Shown here piece by piece: positions 568 through 63,433 of a DNA stretch of 64,000 nucleotides. This stretch comes from Eledone cirrhosa. Lineage: Eukaryota. The notes under the pieces are model-generated. The model worked only from the letters and a program-made list of their open reading frames with translations. It did not search any database and was not told where the DNA came from. A program made the position numbers and the translations under genes. Positions within the stretch are counted from its first letter, which is position 1. The number at the start of each line of letters is the position of its first letter. The stretch covers positions 123,256,001-123,320,000 of the forward strand of contig OZ024743.1 in assembly GCA_964016885.1 (NCBI GenBank), given 5' to 3'.

Positions 568-693
568 GTACAGACACAGACACACAAACATATGTATATA
601 TACATAAATATGAAGTAAACATTACAATACAACGGGAGGAAACAATATTATCACTGACGATGTCACAGGTGTGTGACGAAAGAACTCTGAGAG

Positions 694-728
<35 letters not shown>

Positions 729-16366: not shown

Positions 16367-17337
16367 GAGGGGGGGGGGGTGCAAAAGGTTACCGAATAAG
16401 CAACAAAGCAAAGCGATATTGTACAATGAAAATATATATTATTTTAACGCTTGATATAATATGAAAAGTCTCTTAACATTTCGGACGTAAATTAGTCCTT
16501 CGTCGGGAGATTCAGCAGGAAAATCGTCAGGAGATAGAATGATAAATAAAAGAAGAAATAGAGAAGATAGACAAGAGCGAGAAGATGGAGAAACGTTTTT
16601 TTTTTTTTTTTTTTTTTTTTTTGGTGGTGGGGAAAAGAAATCACGTGTGTTCAGTCAACCATTTTGAGGAAAATCTACACACGGTAATACATCCATCGTA
16701 GGCTACGGTTGGTTTCTCACTCCAACAGGAAACTTACATAATGTGTATGTGAATGTCTCTGGTGTCTCTCGGGCTTCGATTCATTACTTATTAATCATTC
16801 ATTTATATATACACACTTTGCCTTTTATCCTTACGGGGTCGATAAAATAAAGTACCAGTAATGTACTGGGTAATTACTGGCCTTGTGCCTAAAGTAGAAA
16901 CAATTTATTTATATATACACACACATGCAAGGACATAGAAATATGTATACACACGCAGATATGTATGTTTACCTCTCTGTGTGTATGTATGTGTACGTAT
17001 GTTTGTGTGTGTGTGCATTATGACTATGTCTGAGTTTGTATACACCGTAATTATCTCTCAACTGTTTATTTATTTGTTCAAGCATCTCGTTCTGTCAACA
17101 AATCTATATTCTTTCTCTAATCAAGGTGTAACGAGACAAGAAACTTGTCTGCCCATAAAACCTAAAGTTTACTCCAGGAAAACATTAGTTTACAGTGATG
17201 CTAAAATTTTATATTTACTAAAAATGTTATATTCTAAAATTCAAATATATCGCCTCACTACGAAAAAAGGCGTGTAGCACAATACACATATGTATACATG
17301 CGTGTGTGTTTGTCCACGTATGTATGTATGTATTCTC

Positions 17338-19550
17338 AGATGAAGGATAAGTGGTGGAGTGAGAAGGCTGATGAGATACAAGCTGCATCAGATTCCAATA
17401 ACACAAAGCTGTTGTACAGTCTCTTGCGTGAAGTGTATGAACCGTCTTCTACTCTGGTGACACCGCTTCGCAGCAAGGATGGCAAGGAACTTCTTCGTGA
17501 CTCACAAGGAATTCTACGAAGGTGGCGAGAGCACTTTGATGAACTTTTGAATCAGTCGTCTGTCGTCAATGAAGATTTCCTAAATATCATTCCTGAAAAA
17601 CCTCTGAAAGTAGCTCTCGCAGAACCACCGACGCTTGTAGAGGTTGCAGTAGCTATCTCGAAGCTGAACAGTGGAAGGTCTCCAGGTATGGATGGCATAC
17701 ATGCAGAGCTCCTACAATATCGCGGTGAGAGACTTCTACAACATCTTCACTCTTTGTTTGGTAGGATATGGGCTAGTGAATCCGTACCTGAGGACTGGAG
17801 AGATGCAGTAATGGTGGTCTTGTACAAAGGAAAGGGTAACAAGTATGATTATGGAAACTACAAAGGTATATAATTGCTTTCTGTCGTAGGAACATTTTTT
17901 ATGTAGGGTGCTTCTGTACCGTCTGCTGACACACATTGCAGATTCTGTTCTTCCTGAAAGTCAATCTGGTTTTCGTGCTGACGCGGCACTACTGATATGA
18001 TCTTCTCAGCTAGACAGCTCCAGGAGAAGTGCATGGAACAAGGTTTGGATCTGTATCAGGTTTTTGTCGGTGTGACAAAAGCTTTCGATACTGTAAACAG
18101 AAATGCATTGTGGAAGGTTCTTCAGAAACTTGGTTGCGCTGATAAGTTCCTTGCTTTAGTTAGGTCTTTCCATGACGACATGAAGGCTTGGGTTAATGTC
18201 AGAGGTAACATGTCGGAGCCTATCTCAGTAAAAAATGGAGTGAAACAGGGGGATATTCCAGCACCGACCCTGTTTGCTATATACTTTGCAATGGTTTTCT
18301 ATATTGCATTCAGGAATTGCGAGCATGGTGTTTACATCCAATATCGAACCGCTGGCAACATATTTAACATCAGGTGCTTTGCTGCAAAAACAAAAGTATT
18401 TACATCAATCATAAGAGACCTCTTGTATGCAGATGATTGCGATCTTGTAGCTCAAACAGAGAGTGATATGCAGCACATTTTGAATGCATTTTCTGATGCT
18501 TGCACTGCTCTAGGATTGACTGTCAGTCTCAAGAAAACCGTTGTCATGTACCAACCTGCCCCTGGTAAGCAATACGGTGAGCCAAATATCTGTGTATGGT
18601 AAACGACTTTGAGTGGTTGATCAGTTTGTCTACCTGGGCAGCACTGTCAATCGATACAGCAACCTTGATAATGAAATTCCACTCAGGATTAGGAAAGCAA
18701 GTGATGCTTTCGGAAAGCTAGGAAGGCGACTTTGGGGTCGGCGAGACATATGCAAGAAGACAATGGTAAAGGTGTACAAGGCATGTATGTTCTCTTCTCT
18801 TCTTTATGCCTACGAGACATGGACCACATTAAAACATTGGAGCGTTTCCATCAGATGTGTCTCAGACGAATCCATGGCGTTCACTGGAGGGACCACATCA
18901 GTGATGTCGAGATTTTGGAAAGCTCTCCGTGTGACAGTATAGAAGCTCTTGTGCTTAAGCAACGACTCCGTTGGAGTGGTCACCTTGCCAGGATGAAGGA
19001 TTCTAGAATACTAAAACAACTCTTTTATGGAGAGTTAGTTAAAGGAAAATGACCTCCACATAAACCCAAAAAGAGGTATACGAATTCGTTGAAAGCCTCT
19101 TTGAAAGTCGCTAACATCTCTGCTGATACATGGGAAAATGTTGCTGCTGATCGTAATAAATGGAGACTGTATATGAGGGAAAAGTTGCCTTTGAGGCATT
19201 ACTGTTGCATTTCCAGACAGCGAAGGTCCTCCTATGGCACTGACATGCAGCGTCTGTGCGAGACTCTGCTTAAGCAAAGCTGGACTCGAAAGCCATCTTC
19301 GCAGTCATAAAGTAAGACTAGTGGTTGACTACCAGGCTGGTGAGGCGGCTGTTGAAGATGCTACTCATCATGCCTGCCAAGCATGTGGTAGAGAATGTAA
19401 ATCAGCAGGAGGGCTCAAACGACATGCAAAAGTACACGAACTCCAACCACAGCCGCCTATTCCCAGTGAATGTTTTGGTTGCTAACTCTGTGCAAGACAT
19501 TTTAGATCATTGGCTGGGCTAAAAAGCCACATTCGATCGCAGCACTGTTA
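17338..19550 (+). mobile_element. 5'-truncated, frameshifted RTE (BovB-like) LINE with three C-terminal C2H2 zinc fingers
   Basis: SPGMDGIHAE, YKGKG, KAFDTV, GVKQGD, LLYADD, YLGS and RLRWSGHLARM. Fingers CSVC..HLRSH, CQAC..HAKVH and C*LC..HIRSQH. Confidence 0.93.
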
Positions 19551-28220: not shown

Positions 28221-28266
<46 letters not shown>

Positions 28267-28319
28267 ATATGGGTGAGAAGAATACTGCTGGTTGCACATG
28301 GATAACATGTTATAAAATG

Positions 28320-28421
28320 AGTCCCTCATCAGTGATTTACCAAACGATCATGGGTATTTCATCGCATTAAAAATCATATACCTCACGTTGGAGCGATAAT
28401 AACTAAAATAAGTTATCGGGA
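28320..28421 (-). ncRNA. Candidate rearranged (non-circularly permuted) hammerhead, copy 1, intact core
   Basis: GTCCC-hairpin-ATCGC-t-CCAACG..GGTA-TA-TGATTT-ttaat-GCGAT-GAAA-TACC..CGTTTGG-t-AAATCA-CTGATGA-GGGAC. It lies in the TA-flanked repeat 28263-28710. Confidence 0.65.
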
Positions 28422-28718
28422 CAATAGAAACGCGTAAAGCGAGTGAGACAAGTAAACAACACAGGGGGAAGGTAACCGAAGTTGGAAATAAACACAAGCA
28501 ACATAGTTATTCTTTCAGCATAAGCTGTGTGAATATATGAGCGAGTCAGCAACAGACCTTTCGCTAGTGAATCCGGTGTTAGAAAGAATGAAAACCGTTT
28601 TCCCAGCGAACGGGAGGAAGAAAGAAGGGGAGAAACAGGGACTGAGTGAGTGGGAGTGCGAGGAAGAGGTCAGTAGAGAGAAAGAGTTAACTGACATGGC
28701 AGAGGGGACGAATATATA

Positions 28719-28945: not shown

Positions 28946-29406
28946 CTGATGAGACCCCCCCCCCCCGTTCTTGGTCTCTTCTTACTCCCATTCCAATTTT
29001 AAGCTTAACTTACTAGCAACAACACAGCCACCGTATTCTCCATAGATTTTATCATGTTTCGCTGTGACCGGTCATCTCTCTCCCTCTAACTACCTACTTC
29101 GTTACTATCTACTCTTCCCCCTCTTTCTTCTTCTCCCTTTCTCCCTCTCACTTTTACTCACTCTCTCTCTATTTGCCACCTCATTGTTTTCCTTCGCCTG
29201 ACCTTCTAGCAGTCTTTTTCTCATTCACACTCGCTTGGGTCAGTCGCCTTTTTCGTTCGATCACACGCTCTCGAACTTATGTTCTGTTACCGCTGTGATC
29301 TTGGGTTCTCTCTCTCTAGTTGCTGCACATTCTTCGGTATGTTGTTGTTTTTTCGCTGTTATCTCTTTTCCCCTTTTCCCTTCTGTTTTCCTTCTCTCCC
29401 TCCTCC

Positions 29407-29510
29407 GTTTTCTCAATAACTTACCCCGTTATTGAACGCCCTGGAGGTAAATATATTGTCTTTAAAGCGTTGAAATATCCGAGAACCCCCAGGAGACTAC
29501 TGACGAGGAC
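29407..29510 (+). ncRNA. Candidate rearranged hammerhead, copy 2
   Basis: CAATAAC/GTTATTG hairpin-AACGC-CCTGGAGGT-aa-ATA-TA-TTGTCT-ttaaa-GCGTT-GAAA-TAT..ACCCCCAGG-AGACTA-CTGACGA-GGAC. It lies in the TA-flanked repeat 28946-29557. Confidence 0.6.
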
Positions 29511-29820
29511 CCCCGTTCTTGCTTTCTTCTTACTCTCATTCCATTTTTAAGCCTACACATATATATAGGAGAGCCTATATATATATATAGGAGAGCCTAT
29601 ATATATATAGGAGAGCTACGTTCAAGAGGAATATGTACTTAAGTTCAGTTTATCATACTTAATGTGAGGAACTGAAAATAATTCATTGACGTTAATTATA
29701 ATATAAGAAAGTAGATAAATCCTGTTGTTTCAATCAAATAAAAAGTATTTAGAGATAGAGAGAAAAGAGTAGGCCTAATCTTTGGTAGCTATGATGGCAA
29801 CTCTAGACATATTTCAGCCT

Positions 29821-38970: not shown

Positions 38971-38984
38971 ATATATATATATAT

Positions 38985-39425
38985 ATATATAAATGTATAT
39001 ATAGTGTATTTTGCAATACACTGTATGCTTAATAAAAAGCATTTTGAAGACCTTATGCTATTGTTTTAGAGTAGTGACAGACTCACTTACTTTAATTTTA
39101 GCAAACAGGGGGAGATAAAGCTGACAAGGCCTTGTTTCTGCATTTATTGATGCTTATCAAAGCCAACTACTCCTCCCGTTTAAACTACTCCCCTAGTATA
39201 AACGGGAGGAGTAGTTGGCTTTGATAAGCATCAATAAATGCAGAAACAAGGCCTTGTCAGCTTTATCTCCCCCTGTTTGCTGAAATTAAAGTAAGTGAGC
39301 CTGTCACTACTCTAAAACAATAGCATAAGGTCTTCAAAATGCTTTTTATTAAGCATACAGTGTATTGCAAAATACACTATATATACATTTATATATATAT
39401 AGCTATTTCAGAGCAACAATTCTAA
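38985..39425. mobile_element. Fold-back insertion with ~195-bp arms and a U3-A8 hammerhead in each arm
   Basis: Plus strand 39217-39262 reads GGCT-TTGATAA-GCAT caataa ATGC a-GAAA-CAAGGCCTTG-TC-AGCT. The mirror copy is at 39119-39164. Confidence 0.8.
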
Positions 39426-42705: not shown

Positions 42706-42736
42706 TAAATATATCACCATAAATATAGCGATGAAA

Positions 42737-43436
42737 TTAATTGGGAATTATTTGCATAGATCGTTAAAATATTCGTCGAAATTCATGCGATCGGAGTTAT
42801 TTCTATCAGCTCATTATTTTTTTAGATCATTACTTAGGAGGCAGTGAAGGGTTCAATTATGTCAAGAGTGAAGGAAACTTCGTCAAACTGACTTACCGAG
42901 GGTGTACTAGATACATATAATCTTCAGTGATTTTTCCAGGATACTAAAGTTATGTTTTATTATAACCTATAATCAACTGTTCAATTCTTCGTTTCACTTA
43001 GCCATTCACTCAGTGGTATTTAAACTAAAACCATCTGATATAGAGAAGATAATAAATCGAAATAAAAACGTTTTGATTTCGTTGTTTTGTAAAAACACAA
43101 TGGAAGTAAGATTCGAAAAAATCCGTCCCAGAGCTCTTGATACAAGAATATTACAGAAATCAATATAATCATATAATACAATAACTTTGACAGATACAAA
43201 AACAATCAGAATATAAAAATATTAATTATATTACTTATAACTAGAAACAGTATATAAAAAATAAATCGAAATAAAGACATCTTGAATTCGCTGTTCTGAA
43301 AAAGCTCAATGGACGTAAGTTTCGGAGCAACCGGTTCTAGCGCTTATTTTCATCCATATGGGATCGATAAAATAAAGTACCAGTAATGCTCTGGGATATT
43401 TGCTAGCCTTGTGTCAAAAGCGTCAAAAGTGTGAAC

Positions 43437-43498
<62 letters not shown>

Positions 43499-43784
43499 TT
43501 TCATTTCTGAATTTGTTTAGCAAGATTCTTTATCTGAAAACGTGTGTTGAAACCGATATTGTTATACTTTGTGAGGGTCATGTTGCCAATAAGAAACACA
43601 CGCACCAGTTACTTTCATTTCAATTTATTATAATAAATTTATAAATTTATTATAATAAATTGAAGTGAAAGCAACTGGTGCGTGTGTTTCTTATTGGCAA
43701 CATGACCCTCCCAAAGTATAACAATATCGGTTTCAACACACGTTTTCAGATAAAGAATCTTGCTAAACAAATTCAGAAATGAAA

Positions 43785-43850
<66 letters not shown>

Positions 43851-44551
43851 GTTCACACTTTTGACGCTTTTGACACAAGGCTAGCAAATATCCAGAGCAT
43901 TACTGGTACTTTATTTTATCGACCCCATATGGATGAAAATAAGCGCTAGAACCGGTTGCTCCGAAACTTATGTCCATTGAGCTTTTTCAGAACAGCGAAT
44001 TCAAGATGTTTTTATTTCGATTTATTTTTTATATACTGTTTCTAGTTATAAGTAATATAATTAATATTTTTATATTCTGATTGTTTTTGTATCTGTCAAA
44101 GTTATTGTATTATATGATTATATTGATTTCTGTAATATTCTTGTATAAGGGAGCTCTGGGACAGATTTTTTTAGAATCTAACTTCCATTGTGTTTTTACA
44201 GAACAACGAAATCAAAACGTTTTTATTTCGATTTATTATCTATCTATATCAGATGGTTTTAGTTTAAATACCACTGAGTGAATGGCTAAGTGAAACGAAG
44301 AATTGAACAGTTGATTATAGGTTAAAATAAAACATAACTTTAGTATCCTGGAAAAATCACTGAAGATTATATGTATCTAGTACACCCTCGGTAAGTCAGT
44401 TTGACGAAGTTTCCTTCACTCTTGACATAATTGAACCCTTCACTGCCTCCTAAGTAATGATATAAAAAAATAATGAGCTGATAGAAATAACTCCGATCGC
44501 ATGAATTTCGACGAATATTTTAACGATCTATGCAAATATTTCCCAATTAAA
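42737..44551. repeat. 1.8-kb spacerless palindrome with ~905-bp arms centred at 43641/43642
   Basis: Each arm has ~700 bp of sequence including a SINE fragment, then (TA)n, then ~145 nt matching the PLE terminus at 51384-51550. The arms differ by scattered substitutions. Confidence 0.92.
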
Positions 44552-45981
44552 TTGGTCTTACTTGAAGGAAGGAATCAAACTCTTAGCGGTAATTGGTAGC
44601 AACTCTAAAATTTATTAGAAACTAATTTTACAAAATTAATTTACATGCTCATTTTTAAACCTAATCTCTCTTAGCAATTTAACAACTCTCTTTCTATGAA
44701 TATAAATTACTATCAACTTATCTAAGTAAATTTCATTAGGTTCTGTTATATATAAGCATGTCCATAGCTGTTCACTTTTCTGCAAACAACAATAAAATTG
44801 TTCTTGCTAGTGTGTACATTAATTTTGCGAGATTAATTTTAATTAATTTCGAAAAATAAATAATTATTAATTTCCCGAAGTTATCTCCCCTTATCGTTTG
44901 CATTTCAAGGACTATCAATTACTATGTTAGTGTTTTTGCTGTTGTTACTTTTATTTTTCAACGAAATAGGAATTTTCAATTATCTGAGAATTTTTTGATT
45001 ACGTCTTTCTTCGGTTAAATTATGTATTAAAACACTTACTAATTCTACCAGACTACAACTGTATGCAGTTATTTATAATATATGAATTAGTTGTTGGATA
45101 CATATCTGACGATGATACGAACTACTGATATTTCTGATGGATACCTTTTACCCTGTCTAGAGATTTTTTCAATTGTACTTTTGTCTTTTACTTTTACTTA
45201 GTTTTAGTTATTGGTCAGCGGCCATACTGGGACGCCATCTTTAATGTTGTTTTAATAATTATATAAACTACAGCACTTTGTCTTGCATAATCGCCCACGT
45301 AAGATAAACATATGTCAAGTGGGCATTGGCATGAGAGGAGCTAACCAATTACACATGAGTACATATAGTTAACCGTTTAATTCCTCATATTAATGTTAAC
45401 TTACAGACATACAGTTATATACCATATATACTCATGTAAAACTCGACCTCTTGTAACCGTTGACTCCTTTTTTGCCAAATTTTGGATTTATCCTTGTATC
45501 TAATGTAAAAGTCGAGCCTATATTTTCACGGATAAGCTTTATGACACAATGTATTATCCTCGCATAAATGTTACGATGAGCAAATTCATTTTTCTACATT
45601 ACGTTCAGATGTACGCATCAAAACACTAAATACTTTACTGAGAAGCCTATTACGATTTCAAAATCTGTGCGATTTTATTGACTACCTACAGGTGAAAGGC
45701 AAAATCAACCATGTCATGATTTGAATCCATAATGTAGAAAAAGGGTCATGATTTAAATCCTTTAGTCTGGCGCTCTACTGTTTCTACGGCATACCAAAAT
45801 ATTTCTTAGAACCCGCTAAATATTTGACAAGAATATCTAACAAGTATCTACAAAGTAATTGCGAACATATCTAACAACATACTAGGGTAAAAGCAACAAC
45901 TCCGAAACAACAAATGAATAACTCGCCGTATGAAATTATCATAATATTCAACATTGGGAAGTAAAAAAACATACCCTAGAC

Positions 45982-51384: not shown

Positions 51385-52356
51385 TTCGTTTCTGAATTTG
51401 TTTAGCAAGATTCTTTATCTGAAATCGTGTGTTGAAACCGATATTGTTATACTTTGGGAGGGTCATGTTGCCAATAAGAAACACACGCACCAGTTGCTTT
51501 CACTTCAATTTAATTTATTATATATTTATAAATTTACAAATTTATAAATTTCTGGTTGGTTGGTTGGTTCCACAACCAGATAGTTGTTTATATATATATA
51601 GTCATAGTTCTTTCGTCACACACTCTGTGACCTCTTCAGTGACTGGGGATTTCTTTCTTCGTTTCTGTGCCTTTCCTTTCTTCTATCCTACGCCATTTTG
51701 TTTGTGTGTGGGTTGCGTGCTCAGTTTGCGCATGCGCCACATCCGGGTGTCTGTGTGTGTTTGTGTTCATTTTTCTATTTTTCTATTTATATTTTTCTAT
51801 TTGTTTGTTTATTTATTTATTTATTTATTTATTGTTGGTTGGTTGTTTGTTCTATGTGTGTGTGTGTTTTCATTTTGTCTTGTGTGTGTTTTCATTTTGT
51901 GTGTGTTTTCAATTGTAAGTTGTTTGTTCTATGTGTGTGTGTGTTTTCATTTTGTCCTTAATTGTAAGTTGTGATGTTGCTGTTCCACTCATATTTTCTA
52001 TTTAATTTTGGTTTTAATTCTTTTATGCTTACTGCCTCTGTAATTTGCCTAAACATTGCGTCTTTCTTGTGTGTGGATTCTATTTTTATTTCTATGCTCT
52101 CTAATTTACCCCTGTGTTCTATCTTAGCATGTTGGTAGAGCACAGATGATTCTTTATTATCTTGGAGGTCTCGCCAGTGTTCATTTATTCGTTCCCCTAT
52201 ACTACGAGCTGTCTCACCTATGTACACTATATTTTTGTTTCTAGATTGTCCTTCAGTACATCTTATGCTATATACTACATTTCTAGTTTTACAGTTAATA
52301 TGGGGGCTTATTTTACAGGTTATACATTTCTTATCTGCTACACCGTCTTTTTCGTT
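51384..52356 (-). mobile_element. 5'-truncated PLE: GIY-YIG endonuclease (frame open 52356-51958) and 3' region
   Basis: CITC..NCKTRNVVYSIRC..VYIGETARSIGERINEH..HAKIEH..RQITEAV..KPKLN. It ends at (TA)n. Confidence 0.9.
51600..51644 (-). ncRNA. Minimal type I hammerhead ribozyme
   Basis: AGTCA-CTGAAGA-g GTCACA gagtg TGTGAC-GAAA-gaac-TA-TGACT. Confidence 0.75.
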
Positions 52357-52769
52357 CTATGTATCTTTACCCTTTCTAGCAGTCTCTCTCTCTGTTAGCC
52401 TCTTCCTCACTCTTCACTCACTCATTCTCTGTCACTACCTCTCCTCCTCCTCTTTCTTCCCGTTTGACCTGTGAGTAATTCTTTTCTCTCACATTCTCGG
52501 CCAAGCTGGTCGGAATTTTTTCTCTCTCGTCTACGATTTCACAGAACTTATGTTTACCGAATTCGCAAACCAGACCCCTTCTTCCTCCCGTTAGACCTGT
52601 GCGAAATTCCTTCCTTGCTCACATTTCAACCAGGTTTGATGGTCTTTATTCTCTCGTTCACGATTTCACCGAACTTAAATTCATAGAAATCTGGGACTTG
52701 TCTCTTTCTTCCTCACTTTCTGTTGCTTCACCATTTTGTTTGTTTACCCTCGGGTCCCCTTTATTTACG

Positions 52770-52873
52770 TGTCCCAACGACTTTTTTTAGCCGTTGCTCG
52801 CACCAACCGGAGGTATATGGTCTTTAAAGCGATGAAATGCCTATGATGGTTGGAAGATCACAGATGAAGGACA
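52770..52873 (+). ncRNA. Candidate rearranged hammerhead, copy 3 (U4A core mutation)
   Basis: TGTCC-CAACGACT/AGCCGTTG-c-TCGC-a-CCAACC-gg-AGGTA-TA-TGGTCT-ttaaa-GCGAt-GAAA-TGCCT-atgat-GGTTGG-a-AGATCA-CAGATGA-a-GGACA. Confidence 0.6.
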
Positions 52874-52879
52874 AACTTT

Positions 52880-52941
<62 letters not shown>

Positions 52942-60770: not shown

Positions 60771-60837
<67 letters not shown>

Positions 60838-61028
60838 AACCAGTAAGACCCCGACAGCTGAGCTCAAGCCGTTTCGACGGCTAATTCTGGACTAAATGAA
60901 AATTTATCCTGGTATTTAAATAGCCGATCTTCTCAAGGGGTAATTCCATATATGGTCAAAGTGATTGTCAAAAATCAGTAGTAATTCTGTGGTTGCAAAT
61001 TAGTAGGGGAGATGGTGGCTAAACCTGC

Positions 61029-62144
61029 CGTGATGATGGGCTCCTTACCCTTAAAGGGTACAACCCCAGTAGTACAGATCGGGTCCGGAAACAATTAATC
61101 AGATTCTTCCGCGACTGGGGATTTAAAATAACCCTACAAACGTCCCTGACTCGAGTAAACTTCCTGGACGTGACCCTCGACCTCGAAAACGACCTGTACT
61201 ACCCATACAGGAAACCTAATGACAATCTGCACTACATCCACCGCCGATCAAACCATCCTAGGAACATCACAAACAACCTGGTCAAAAACATCTCCCTCCG
61301 CATATCCCGTTTGTCAGCTAATGAGCGGATATTCGATGAACATGCGCCTTATTACAACCAGGCCCTCAAGCGGAGTAGTTTCCGGGAGGAAATATCCTAC
61401 TGTCCAGCTCCCATTAGCGGAACCAGCAGGAGACACCGCCGCTCACGCAATGTAACATGGTTCAATCCTCCCCACAACGCAGAGGTGACTACTCCCATCG
61501 GGAAACTATTCTTTAGGCTCATTGAAAAACACTTCCCATTACAACACCGCTACCACAACATAATTAACAAAAATACCATCAAACTCTCTTACAGCACTAC
61601 ACCAAACTTCGCACAAAACATCGTCTCCTCTAACAATAAAAAACTCAACCCCGATGGCAGAAATAACCTAAATAGCAGTGGAGAACCGACCAGGAGGTGT
61701 AACTGCCCGGATAGATCTATTTGCCCACTCGACAATAGATGCAGAGACCGTAATGTGATCTACCAGTGCAACGTGAGGACGGATACCTCCAACAAAGCCT
61801 ATATAGGACTTACCGCATGTGACTTCAAGACCCGGCTATACCAACATAGACATACCTTCCGAAACCCGGCCCGGCGTCACGCCACTACACTTTCGGGCCA
61901 CATATGGGACCTCAAGGACAACAACATCACCTATGATCTCACTTGGAGATTACTGTCCAGAGCCAATTCTTACACGGGAGGACGCCGTCCGTGCAATTTA
62001 TGCTCGGAGGAAACTTTACAAATGCTGTTTTCGACGGACCAACTCCTAAACAAGAAAGATGAACTAGTTATTGCATGTAAACATAGATTGCGTAGGACTT
62101 ACCTCGCCCTCAAACCCCATAATGACCCGGGGGGGGTAGACTAG
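61029..62144 (+). CDS. PLE RT C-terminal half plus GIY-YIG endonuclease, uninterrupted but 5'-truncated
   Basis: The frame is open from RDDGLL through NFLDVTL, YRKPND, SNHP, WFNPP, CNC..CPL..C, VIY..YIGLT, CNLC and CKH. Confidence 0.9.
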   Translation, partial: RDDGLLTLKGYNPSSTDRVRKQLIRFFRDWGFKITLQTSLTRVNFLDVTLDLENDLYYPYRKPNDNLHYIHRRSNHPRNITNNLVKNISLRISRLSANERIFDEHAPYYNQALKRSSFREEISYCPAPISGTSRRHRRSRNVTWFNPPHNAEVTTPIGKLFFRLIEKHFPLQHRYHNIINKNTIKLSYSTTPNFAQNIVSSNNKKLNPDGRNNLNSSGEPTRRCNCPDRSICPLDNRCRDRNVIYQCNVRTDTSNKAYIGLTACDFKTRLYQHRHTFRNPARRHATTLSGHIWDLKDNNITYDLTWRLLSRANSYTGGRRPCNLCSEETLQMLFSTDQLLNKKDELVIACKHRLRRTYLALKPHNDPGGVD

Positions 62145-63247
62145 GGCTATAACACCCCACTTGCCGATTTTGCAATGGGTAACCCCTGCTTGCCAAAGAA
62201 GACGTAAGATCTTCTTTGTATTCTTTTATCGCTTCCTTTATTTCCTTCCCCCCTCTCTCCTTTGTCCTTCTACCCCAGCTCTTCTCCTTTGTCGGCGTCT
62301 TTTCTCGCCCACCCGAGGCTGCCCTTTGGCCCCATGTAGCCTTAGTACCCCCCTCCCTCCCCTAGTCTATGATAGATTTGGCGGACTCCGCCCTTTATAG
62401 CAGTTGGCTTAGACCCCGGATACTTGCCCCCTTTTTCCGACCGCTCCCACTATTCTCTGTGCCCTCTATATTTCTTAGTGGCACTTATGCCTTATTTTTT
62501 CGTTTCAGTATTTCTTGCTTCGCTTTTCTTCTGGGCGGGGTGGATTCTGAATTTATTTCTCCGTATTCTACCTTTATTTCGTACGAACTTTCATGTAGCT
62601 TGTTTTAGATCTTTTAGAGTTAGCATTAGTATATATTTTTCTCGGGACTCAGAATTATTATCTCGTACAAGTTCACTTTGCTGCACTGGGTCGTTGCTGG
62701 CCCGGGATGGAAACCTTTATTGTTTATTTCGTGGTAGTCTCTTTAGTATTTTGGCCCCTTTTGTTGACCCGTCACCGTATCATTTACGTACTTATACCTC
62801 TTAAAAGGGTCCTTGCCTTATCCGTCCCACCTAGTTCTTTTACTTATTTCGTTATTTCTTTATTTATTTCTTTCTTTACTTCTTTCTTTCTTTCTTTATT
62901 TTATTCTAGCCTAACAATAGCCTGAGACCTAGGTCGTAGAATTTAATTTACTTTACTTTTTTCTTTACACTTATTTGCTTTTCTTCACTCTCAGTATTTT
63001 TTCTTTCCTATATATTTCTACCCCCCATTGTTCTACCTACCGTTCCGACTTCCTCCCCCTCCCCCTCCCCTGTATCTTCTTTGACCTCATGCCCAGCTGT
63101 AGCTGGCACTACCAACGCTTGATTGGGTCTACTCCACCCCCTCCCCTCTTTCTCCTACTGGCAGGTTTAGCCACCATCTCCCCTACTAATTTGCAACCAC
63201 AGAATTACTACTGATTTTTGACAATCACTTTGACCATATATGGAATT

Positions 63248-63341
63248 ACCCCTTGAGAAGATCGGCTATTTAAATACCAGGATAAATTTTCATTTAGTCC
63301 AGAATTAGCCGTCGAAACGGCTTGAGCTCAGCTGTCGGGGT
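63248..63341 (+). ncRNA. Type I hammerhead with a U3-A8 core (mirror copy 60848-60941, minus strand)
   Basis: ACCCC-TTGAGAA-GAtCGGCTA...TAGCCGTC-GAAA-CGGCT tgagctc AGCTG-TC-GGGGT. Confidence 0.75.
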
Positions 63342-63433
63342 CTTACTGGTTCCTATTACCCACTCTACTACCTCAAGTATTGAGTACTTTGGTGCGTTAT
63401 GGTCCACCTGGTTCCTTACCACATTTCCTTCGT

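Follow-up and report, generated by a model that had tools for sequence, protein, structure and literature searches.

Non-coding retrozymes of Eledone cirrhosa probably carry a type-SGC hammerhead ribozyme descended from the 3′ end of a Naiad Penelope-like element

Natural hammerhead ribozymes of type SGC, in which the cleavage block (S), the GAAA block (G), and the CUGANGA block (C) follow one another in that order, cleave in vitro (PMC10085705). According to the accessible text of that paper, the known examples come from metatranscriptomes and not from genomes of known organisms, and non-circular permutations are reported as absent from the latter, save one weak bacterial case. The published descriptor wants a direct stem II (a C-G pair plus 2-6 bp), and the linker is typically 3 nt (PMC10085705, same portions). 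Among animal elements, the metazoan non-LTR retrozymes are thought to be mobilised by Penelope-like elements (PLEs) via circular RNA (available parts of PMC7229834 and bioRxiv 10.64898/2026.07.22.740005). PLEs leave a signature of tandem plus inverted insertions, and in the accessible text of PMC8557442 the Naiads, which target (TA)n, are described as elements that "lack canonical HHR"; some of them are nevertheless marked "HHR_core" or "HHR_half_core," with the second half "on either side" at 35-50 nt.

We analyzed 64,000 nucleotides of the Eledone cirrhosa genome (the window; contig OZ024743.1, positions 123,256,001 to 123,320,000). An initial annotation had placed three motifs there, all of which we found again at the same positions, and had proposed for them the non-circular order UH, GAAA, CUGANGA. 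This order is borne out in the window motifs and is the S, G, C order of type SGC in the accessible text of PMC10085705. The annotation also mentioned a precedent from Xenopus, a name that occurs 0 times in the main text, as available, of this paper on rearranged hammerheads. Judged from sequence, the motif probably represents a hammerhead ribozyme of type SGC on non-coding non-LTR retrozymes that descend from the 3′ end of a Naiad PLE.

Copy 1, which belongs to subfamily B, is a complete splinted type-SGC motif with an intact core on the minus strand (28321..28422). Its splint strand (28393..28422) consists of helix a (28422-28419, partner 28324-28321), hairpin h (28418-28397), and helix b (28396-28393, partner 28365-28362). 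Block S (28371..28391) contributes strands to distal stem III (28391-28386) and proximal stem III (28382-28379) and the 5′ strand of stem I (28376-28371); U16.1 is at 28378 and A17 at 28377, and the predicted cut falls after A17, the last base of an AUA triplet. The linker TTAAT (28370-28366) and block G together occupy 28340..28370, with b′ at 28365-28362, U11.1 at 28361, GAAA at 28360-28357, and the bulged 3′ strands of stem III. Block C (28321..28338) holds the 3′ strand of stem I (28338-28333), CUGAUGA (28332-28326), G10.1 (28325), and a′ (28324-28321). The motif sits in a retrozyme-like insertion on the same strand (28262..28712), a partial monomer with both ends in TA repeats.

The other two copies are on the plus strand. 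Copy 2 (subfamily G; 29407..29513, predicted cut after 29455) has an intact core, CUGACGA, and decayed pairs in stem I, proximal stem III, and helix a. Its insertion (28946..29556) comprises ∼1.1 monomers with a 554-nt period, and the ends are redundant because it begins with a second C block at 28946. Copy 3 (subfamily A; 52771..52872, predicted cut after 52817) departs from the hammerhead core, which copies 1 and 2 keep, by the previously noted U4A change (CAGATGA, 52861-52867), and is probably inactive; its insertion (52335..52884) extends to the usual ATAT junction, which lies ∼70 nt to the 3′ side of the cut. Decay has affected copies 2 and 3, which come from different subfamilies, so copy 1 is the only intact candidate of the three. 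On re-reading the three copies, the pairings quoted initially for stem I and for proximal and distal stem III are correct, as are the three cut positions. A loose S-G-C descriptor (UH, GAAA, and CUGANGA with stems I and III) matches the window seven times, against 1.3 in 40 shuffles; a strict one matches twice, against 0.025, and copy 2 fails it through a stem I mismatch.

The three motifs, annotated as a three-copy ribozyme, are far from being the whole family. A pattern of all three blocks has 14,354 exact matches genome-wide (control 2), which is a whole-family count since the pattern includes the common linker, and a 25-nt S+G pattern has 8,794 exact matches in the 3.0-Gb genome (control 0). 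Successive motifs are separated by units of 493-679 nt (28 units, two truncated copies being set aside), each with one hammerhead motif. Seventeen unit intervals, some duplicated by overlapping loci, are 65-67% pyrimidine. The longest ATG frames in the units are 32-169 aa and are not conserved: The carrier is non-coding. TA repeats are found at the 3′ end of 63 out of 91 mapped segments; 28 of the 91 are longer than one unit, and there are nine head-to-head inverted pairs in 68 loci. A J-type, satellite-like array of at least ∼38 units among those listed, all of them bearing the motif and with a 515-nt period, occupies C1:81,546,793-81,566,386.

Insertion and junction mapping upholds the earlier view that the motif is family-encoded, and the insertion structure of the repeats is of Penelope type. 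The (TA)n target with tandem and inverted 5′-truncated copies is what is expected of a Naiad derivative; Neptune- and Hydra-like PLEs also lie in TA repeats here, so the target does not single out Naiad. By its sequence organization (non-coding, (TA)n-targeting, with tandem and inverted copies), the carrier is a non-LTR retrozyme, with the exception that its hammerhead has the SGC order and not that of type I. In each of two public runs, contigs cover the whole of an A-type unit (30 out of 30 bins, head-to-tail joint included); the runs are labelled as different organisms and the kind of run is unrecorded, so that the coverage cannot show expression. A pattern search of viral contigs gave no matches, and a search of metagenomes gave four, all of a single bacterial coding sequence without the stems, which we rejected as chance. 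We also note tandem shorter units at C2:213.93 Mb (L300:5460-6000), each with an S-G-C-like motif of another family, and a low-copy family of the same fold (L298:5330-5390 and L299; approximately nine matches over the motif), whose body is related to family I and whose bulge resembles that of the Octopus vulgaris Naiad entry.

The initial fold model consisted of stems I and III, which stand and flank the core normally; stem II and the upstream splint helices a, h, and b were absent from it. The complete order is 5′-splint (a-hairpin-b)-S-G-C-3′. Stem II is a single pair, 10.1-11.1, which is purine-pyrimidine in all 12 families (A-U in five, G-U in five, and G-C in two). A direct duplex between b′, the arm before GAAA, and a′, the arm after CUGANGA, has a calculated energy of only -1.0 to +1.2 kcal/mol in 12 out of 12 families, against -3.2 to -9.7 kcal/mol for the arms paired with the strand upstream of the cleavage block. 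None of the 12 families has a continuous stem II between the C-block and G-block arms, and the published SGC descriptor does not fit stem II here, which has only 1 bp, mostly A-U or G-U. A direct stem II with an internal loop was considered and rejected, since it is unstable and its register is not kept. The multi-way junction predicted from the splinted stem II is absent from descriptions of known SGC ribozymes.

CUGANGA, GAAA, and the UH site are present in all 12 family consensuses. The genome searches were anchored on parts of the hammerhead core, which limits core-conservation counts; among 46 copies selected by an anchor without CUGANGA, this block is intact in 40. Pair U16.1-A15.1 is U-A in all 51 aligned copies, and the two stems that adjoin the core, stem I and proximal stem III, are 91.7% and 94.9% paired, with both strands changing. 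The linker between stem I and the stem II arm is 5 nt long, UUAAW in 10 out of 10 consensuses. Of 301 weak Rfam matches, the 150 that were listed include no hammerhead family, and none of these reaches its gathering score, which is expected from the non-circular block order. In families A, B, G, and I, as read by eye, 4-5 bp could form between the stem III bulge and the sequence 3′ of a′; registers of this candidate "I" helix, which in type SGC connects stems I and II at their far sides, differ among families, and it is absent in E and F. A hairpin-ribozyme reading of the GTATAT/GAAA segments was rejected, given that stem III takes up these segments as paired strands and that no part of the hammerhead core is missing.

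We sorted 152 distinct matches into ten subfamilies, A-J (the consensuses omit two false matches and three unassigned copies); families K and L come from a separate search with 165 matches (control 3). Alignment A1 holds 52 copies, 51 of them distinct, three of the 55 picked having been dropped (one with an internal deletion and two further J copies). Standard pairs make up 86.5% of its 1,522 cells in 30 pairs, compared with 70.3 ± 0.7 in shuffled controls (0/500) and 31-46% in slid ones. Pairing reaches 98% at 10.1-11.1, 95% in proximal stem III, 93% in b, 92% in stem I, and 84% in distal stem III; helix h is only 74% paired because family I has no hairpin. At the consensus level, 199 out of 200 cells pair (20 pairs in 10 families); exchanging the 3′ strands among families leaves 168.6 ± 6.5 (0/10,000). 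These pair counts are inflated by kinship, and the structure was drawn from the same related sequences in which pairs were counted.

Covariation, as claimed initially, holds in every helix named, both in alignment A1 and among the subfamily consensuses. Between subfamilies J and B, both sides of one b/b′ pair are changed, and helix a goes from GTCC/GGAC to TTCC/GGAA in G and H and is longer in K and L. The bodies of families G and I have only spots of 20-39 nt in common with other families, with the fold retained, and the pairing comparisons are therefore deep.

In the same genome, a degenerate reverse transcriptase (RT) motif led to one Naiad remnant, and searches with this remnant gave 80 and 148 matches, all of them decayed (longest open frame, 298 aa); another RT motif had given two chance matches. 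The remnant has CxC and TGDL features like the Octopus Naiad protein, which point to an octopod host. Its 3′ UTR contains an S-G-C motif with stem III GTAG/CTAC, a GUC triplet, stem I GCTGCAG/CTGCAGC, the core TTGATAA (U3-A8), and GAAA, and this motif lies 514-1,313 nt behind a same-strand RT match in 10 out of 16 aligned copies. With its U3-A8 core this variant differs from that of families A-L. Positions 10.1 and 11.1 of the remnant cannot pair. Among the loci and ORFs listed in this genome, no Naiad ORF is joined to families A-L, and BLAST of family representatives against the genome's own Naiad loci gave no match assignable to a Naiad 3′ UTR. Octopus-type Naiad motifs number zero here, and a second pattern gave five matches against six in the control.

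In the published Naiad consensus file (PMC8557442 supplement) we read 19 CTGATGA places by eye, a selection from the 54 Naiads that only partly covers motifs with other core letters or split between lines. Seven of the 19 read as the complete splinted SGC fold, in which a, h, b, I, and III are all perfect or near-perfect helices: the 3′ ends of three near-identical Acropora entries, one from the box jellyfish Morbakka, one arthropod, and two Octopus. Entries from Beroe and Euprymna (assigned by their order in the file) have the S-G-C order in a less clean form. In two nematode 3′ ends the blocks follow the canonical order, CUGANGA...GAAA, and stem II contains a long insert; the remaining eight places are within ORFs or unclear. 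From these sequences, Naiads may carry two different hammerhead topologies.

Coral entries have the linker TTAAT, as in the window families. By eye, the Octopus bimaculoides Naiad and B-type copies have the same letters in the hairpin loop (CTTATTTTAG), the spacer (TGA), and the bulge (AATGAT; CATGAT in window copy 1), and compensatory changes set their stems apart. The coral, Morbakka, and arthropod entries pair 10.1 and 11.1 with the splint instead of with each other. We lean, by a modest degree, toward the wider proposal that many Naiads across animal phyla have the splinted SGC hammerhead as their overlooked ribozyme, the first non-circularly permuted one in animal genomes; it would be active with a strand-exchange junction in place of stem II (in some members without a 10.1-11.1 pair) and would clamp both products so that the RNA circularises.

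Other PLEs of this genome, Neptune- and Hydra-like, are present with their own canonical hammerhead motifs. A link of the retrozymes to nearby Neptune/Hydra PLE ORFs was rejected, the seven loci inspected being independent insertions, mostly separated by TA repeats; among the ORFs listed near the retrozymes, none of a PLE is joined to them. In the window, a canonical-order minimal type I candidate (by eye) lies at ∼51575-51645 (minus strand) at the 3′ end of a Neptune-like PLE, whose GIY-YIG ORF is at 51958-52356 (PF01541); further canonical-order type I candidates (by eye) are at ∼648-705 (plus strand) and ∼55738 (minus strand, decayed). Another PLE, at 60833-63356, has a 373-aa RT-end/endonuclease frame without a Pfam match and an inverted terminal arm of 197 nt; a canonical hammerhead candidate whose core is U3-A8 lies near 63255-63330. 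From its motifs we take this PLE to be Hydra- or Nematis-like. Near-perfect palindromes at 42734-44553 (∼1.8 kb) and 38975-39406 (∼430 nt) lie beside PLE fragments and TA repeats. A decayed RTE-like LINE reverse transcriptase is at 17238-19052 (plus strand, PF00078), and elsewhere fragments L137:544-1242, L205, and L206 presumably resemble R4/Dong-type restriction-like-endonuclease retrotransposons.

The ends of the insertions bear on what the RNA does. Genome-wide, nine 3′ ends are at the predicted cut, 7,597 copies read through it, and 1,959 end at ATAT ∼70 nt downstream; we use these counts because the 3′-end count of the 91-segment mapping is biased by the choice of loci. With 7,597 copies reading through and nine ending there, the template was intact at the cut site, which implies either a circle or an uncut precursor: The scarcity of ends at the predicted cut fits circles and, equally, an uncut RNA. 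At the 5′ side, the cut site has 151 junctions and a control site 68, two counts with different denominators; in the mapped segments, 18 out of 90 5′ ends are at the cut site, a number inflated by a BLAST edge artefact.

For an active ribozyme we propose the following course. Helix b would stack coaxially on 10.1-11.1, giving a pseudo-stem II of ∼5 bp, and the 5-nt UUAAW-type linker would hold this pseudo-stem against stem I, thereby replacing the customary loop 1-loop 2 contact. A monomer could then fold a normal hammerhead core and cut after AUA (or GUA), and tandem transcripts would be cut to unit length. Helices a, b, and III would hold the 5′ product and align the ends, with circularisation by host ligase or by reversal of cleavage; in the accessible text of PMC7229834, other retrozymes become circular in vitro by the action of RtcB and not by self-ligation. 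Acting in trans, a Penelope-type RT/endonuclease would nick (TA)n DNA, prime at the internal AUAU just 3′ of the ribozyme, and copy across the intact junction; the resulting insertions would be tandem, over-unit-length, and inverted.

The same end counts suit a different reading, in which the fold derives from a hammerhead but is catalytically silent or switched off, the splint pulling stem II apart, and serves as a 3′ recognition and priming signal for the RT. For 7,597 of 7,606 informative copies the template was intact where the cut is predicted, priming is concentrated immediately 3′ of the fold, stem II amounts to a single weak pair at most, and the minimal hammerheads of PLEs are weakly active in vitro (PMC4209133, available portions). 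We nevertheless hold this reading to be unlikely, since 12 out of 12 consensuses, in which stems and bodies all change, preserve the catalytic residues together with the UH site, and since the Naiad remnant shows a paired change from C3-G8 to U3-A8. Such a paired change is expected if the active-site pair is under selection.

That the same helices act only as a domain-swapped dimer, a single unit being inactive, seems to us improbable. S and C of one unit would then combine with the splint and G of the next in a nested, type III-like order, and in sequence this S1-C1-splint2-G2 arrangement can be drawn without a pseudoknot; tandem units and long arrays exist to supply it, and metazoan PLE hammerheads (PMC4209133) and those of amphibian retrozymes (PMC7229834) act as dimers, according to the accessible text of both papers. 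Stem III here, however, is long and has no palindromic minimal loop, stem I and b′ are joined by a short, conserved linker that agrees with the published SGC geometry, and single-motif SGC constructs cleaved during transcription (both from available parts of PMC10085705). A chance look-alike or neutral relic, as might arise in a genome full of inverted and simple repeats where related subfamilies inflate pair counts, is very improbable and largely refuted by controls of 0-3 against hundreds to thousands of matches and by compensatory changes in five helices across unalignable families.

On the preferred reading, an active splinted SGC ribozyme, three features appear to be new, namely the splint at stem II, the retrozyme carrier in a genome, and the assignment to Naiad; the hammerhead class and the SGC order have been described before. 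We found no account of a splinted SGC hammerhead in animal retroelements in the literature within our scope, which lay outside subscription journals and bioRxiv supplements; "type-SGC" was found only in PMC10085705, and the accessible portions of the literature on Naiad and Penelope hammerheads report no permuted motif. More than 14,000 genomic copies of a non-circular permutation stand against its reported absence from known genomes. If the Naiad assignment is true, it would resolve the puzzle of Naiads that proliferate without a hammerhead yet show "half cores," and the argument that hammerheads are dispensable in PLEs would fall. The fold would also challenge the rule that hammerheads require stem II to be continuous, and its dozen natural sequence variants lend themselves to inexpensive in vitro tests and structural work. 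Given the SGC order, type I descriptors would miss these retrozymes, and standard descriptors overlook a whole class.

Set beside the described systems, the family resembles type-SGC/HRIMA-1 in its S-G-C order, pseudoknotted stems I and III, conserved core, and short linker (PMC10085705, accessible text). It differs from that type, whose direct stem II has several pairs and starts with C-G at the base (same source), in its splint junction, one-pair stem II, and extra distal stem III helix, and in being genomic, with its copies on a retroelement. Like the metazoan non-LTR retrozymes (available parts of PMC7229834 and bioRxiv 10.64898/2026.07.22.740005), it forms non-coding tandem and dispersed monomers with one hammerhead per unit; theirs are type I hammerheads on units of mostly 170-400 nt, in contrast to the longer SGC units described here. 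Penelope, Neptune, and Hydra pLTRs likewise have a hammerhead at the 3′ end of a PLE-type element, although their minimal type I motifs have the circular-permutation order, a strong stem II, and a minimal stem III, opposite to the arrangement in the window family, and are suspected of acting as dimers (PMC4209133, available portions). With Naiad it has in common the (TA)n target and the tandem and inverted insertions (PMC8557442, accessible text) and, by eye, the splinted SGC fold, which several published consensuses have at their 3′ ends; Naiads are coding elements of 3-4 kb (same source), whereas the window elements are non-coding.
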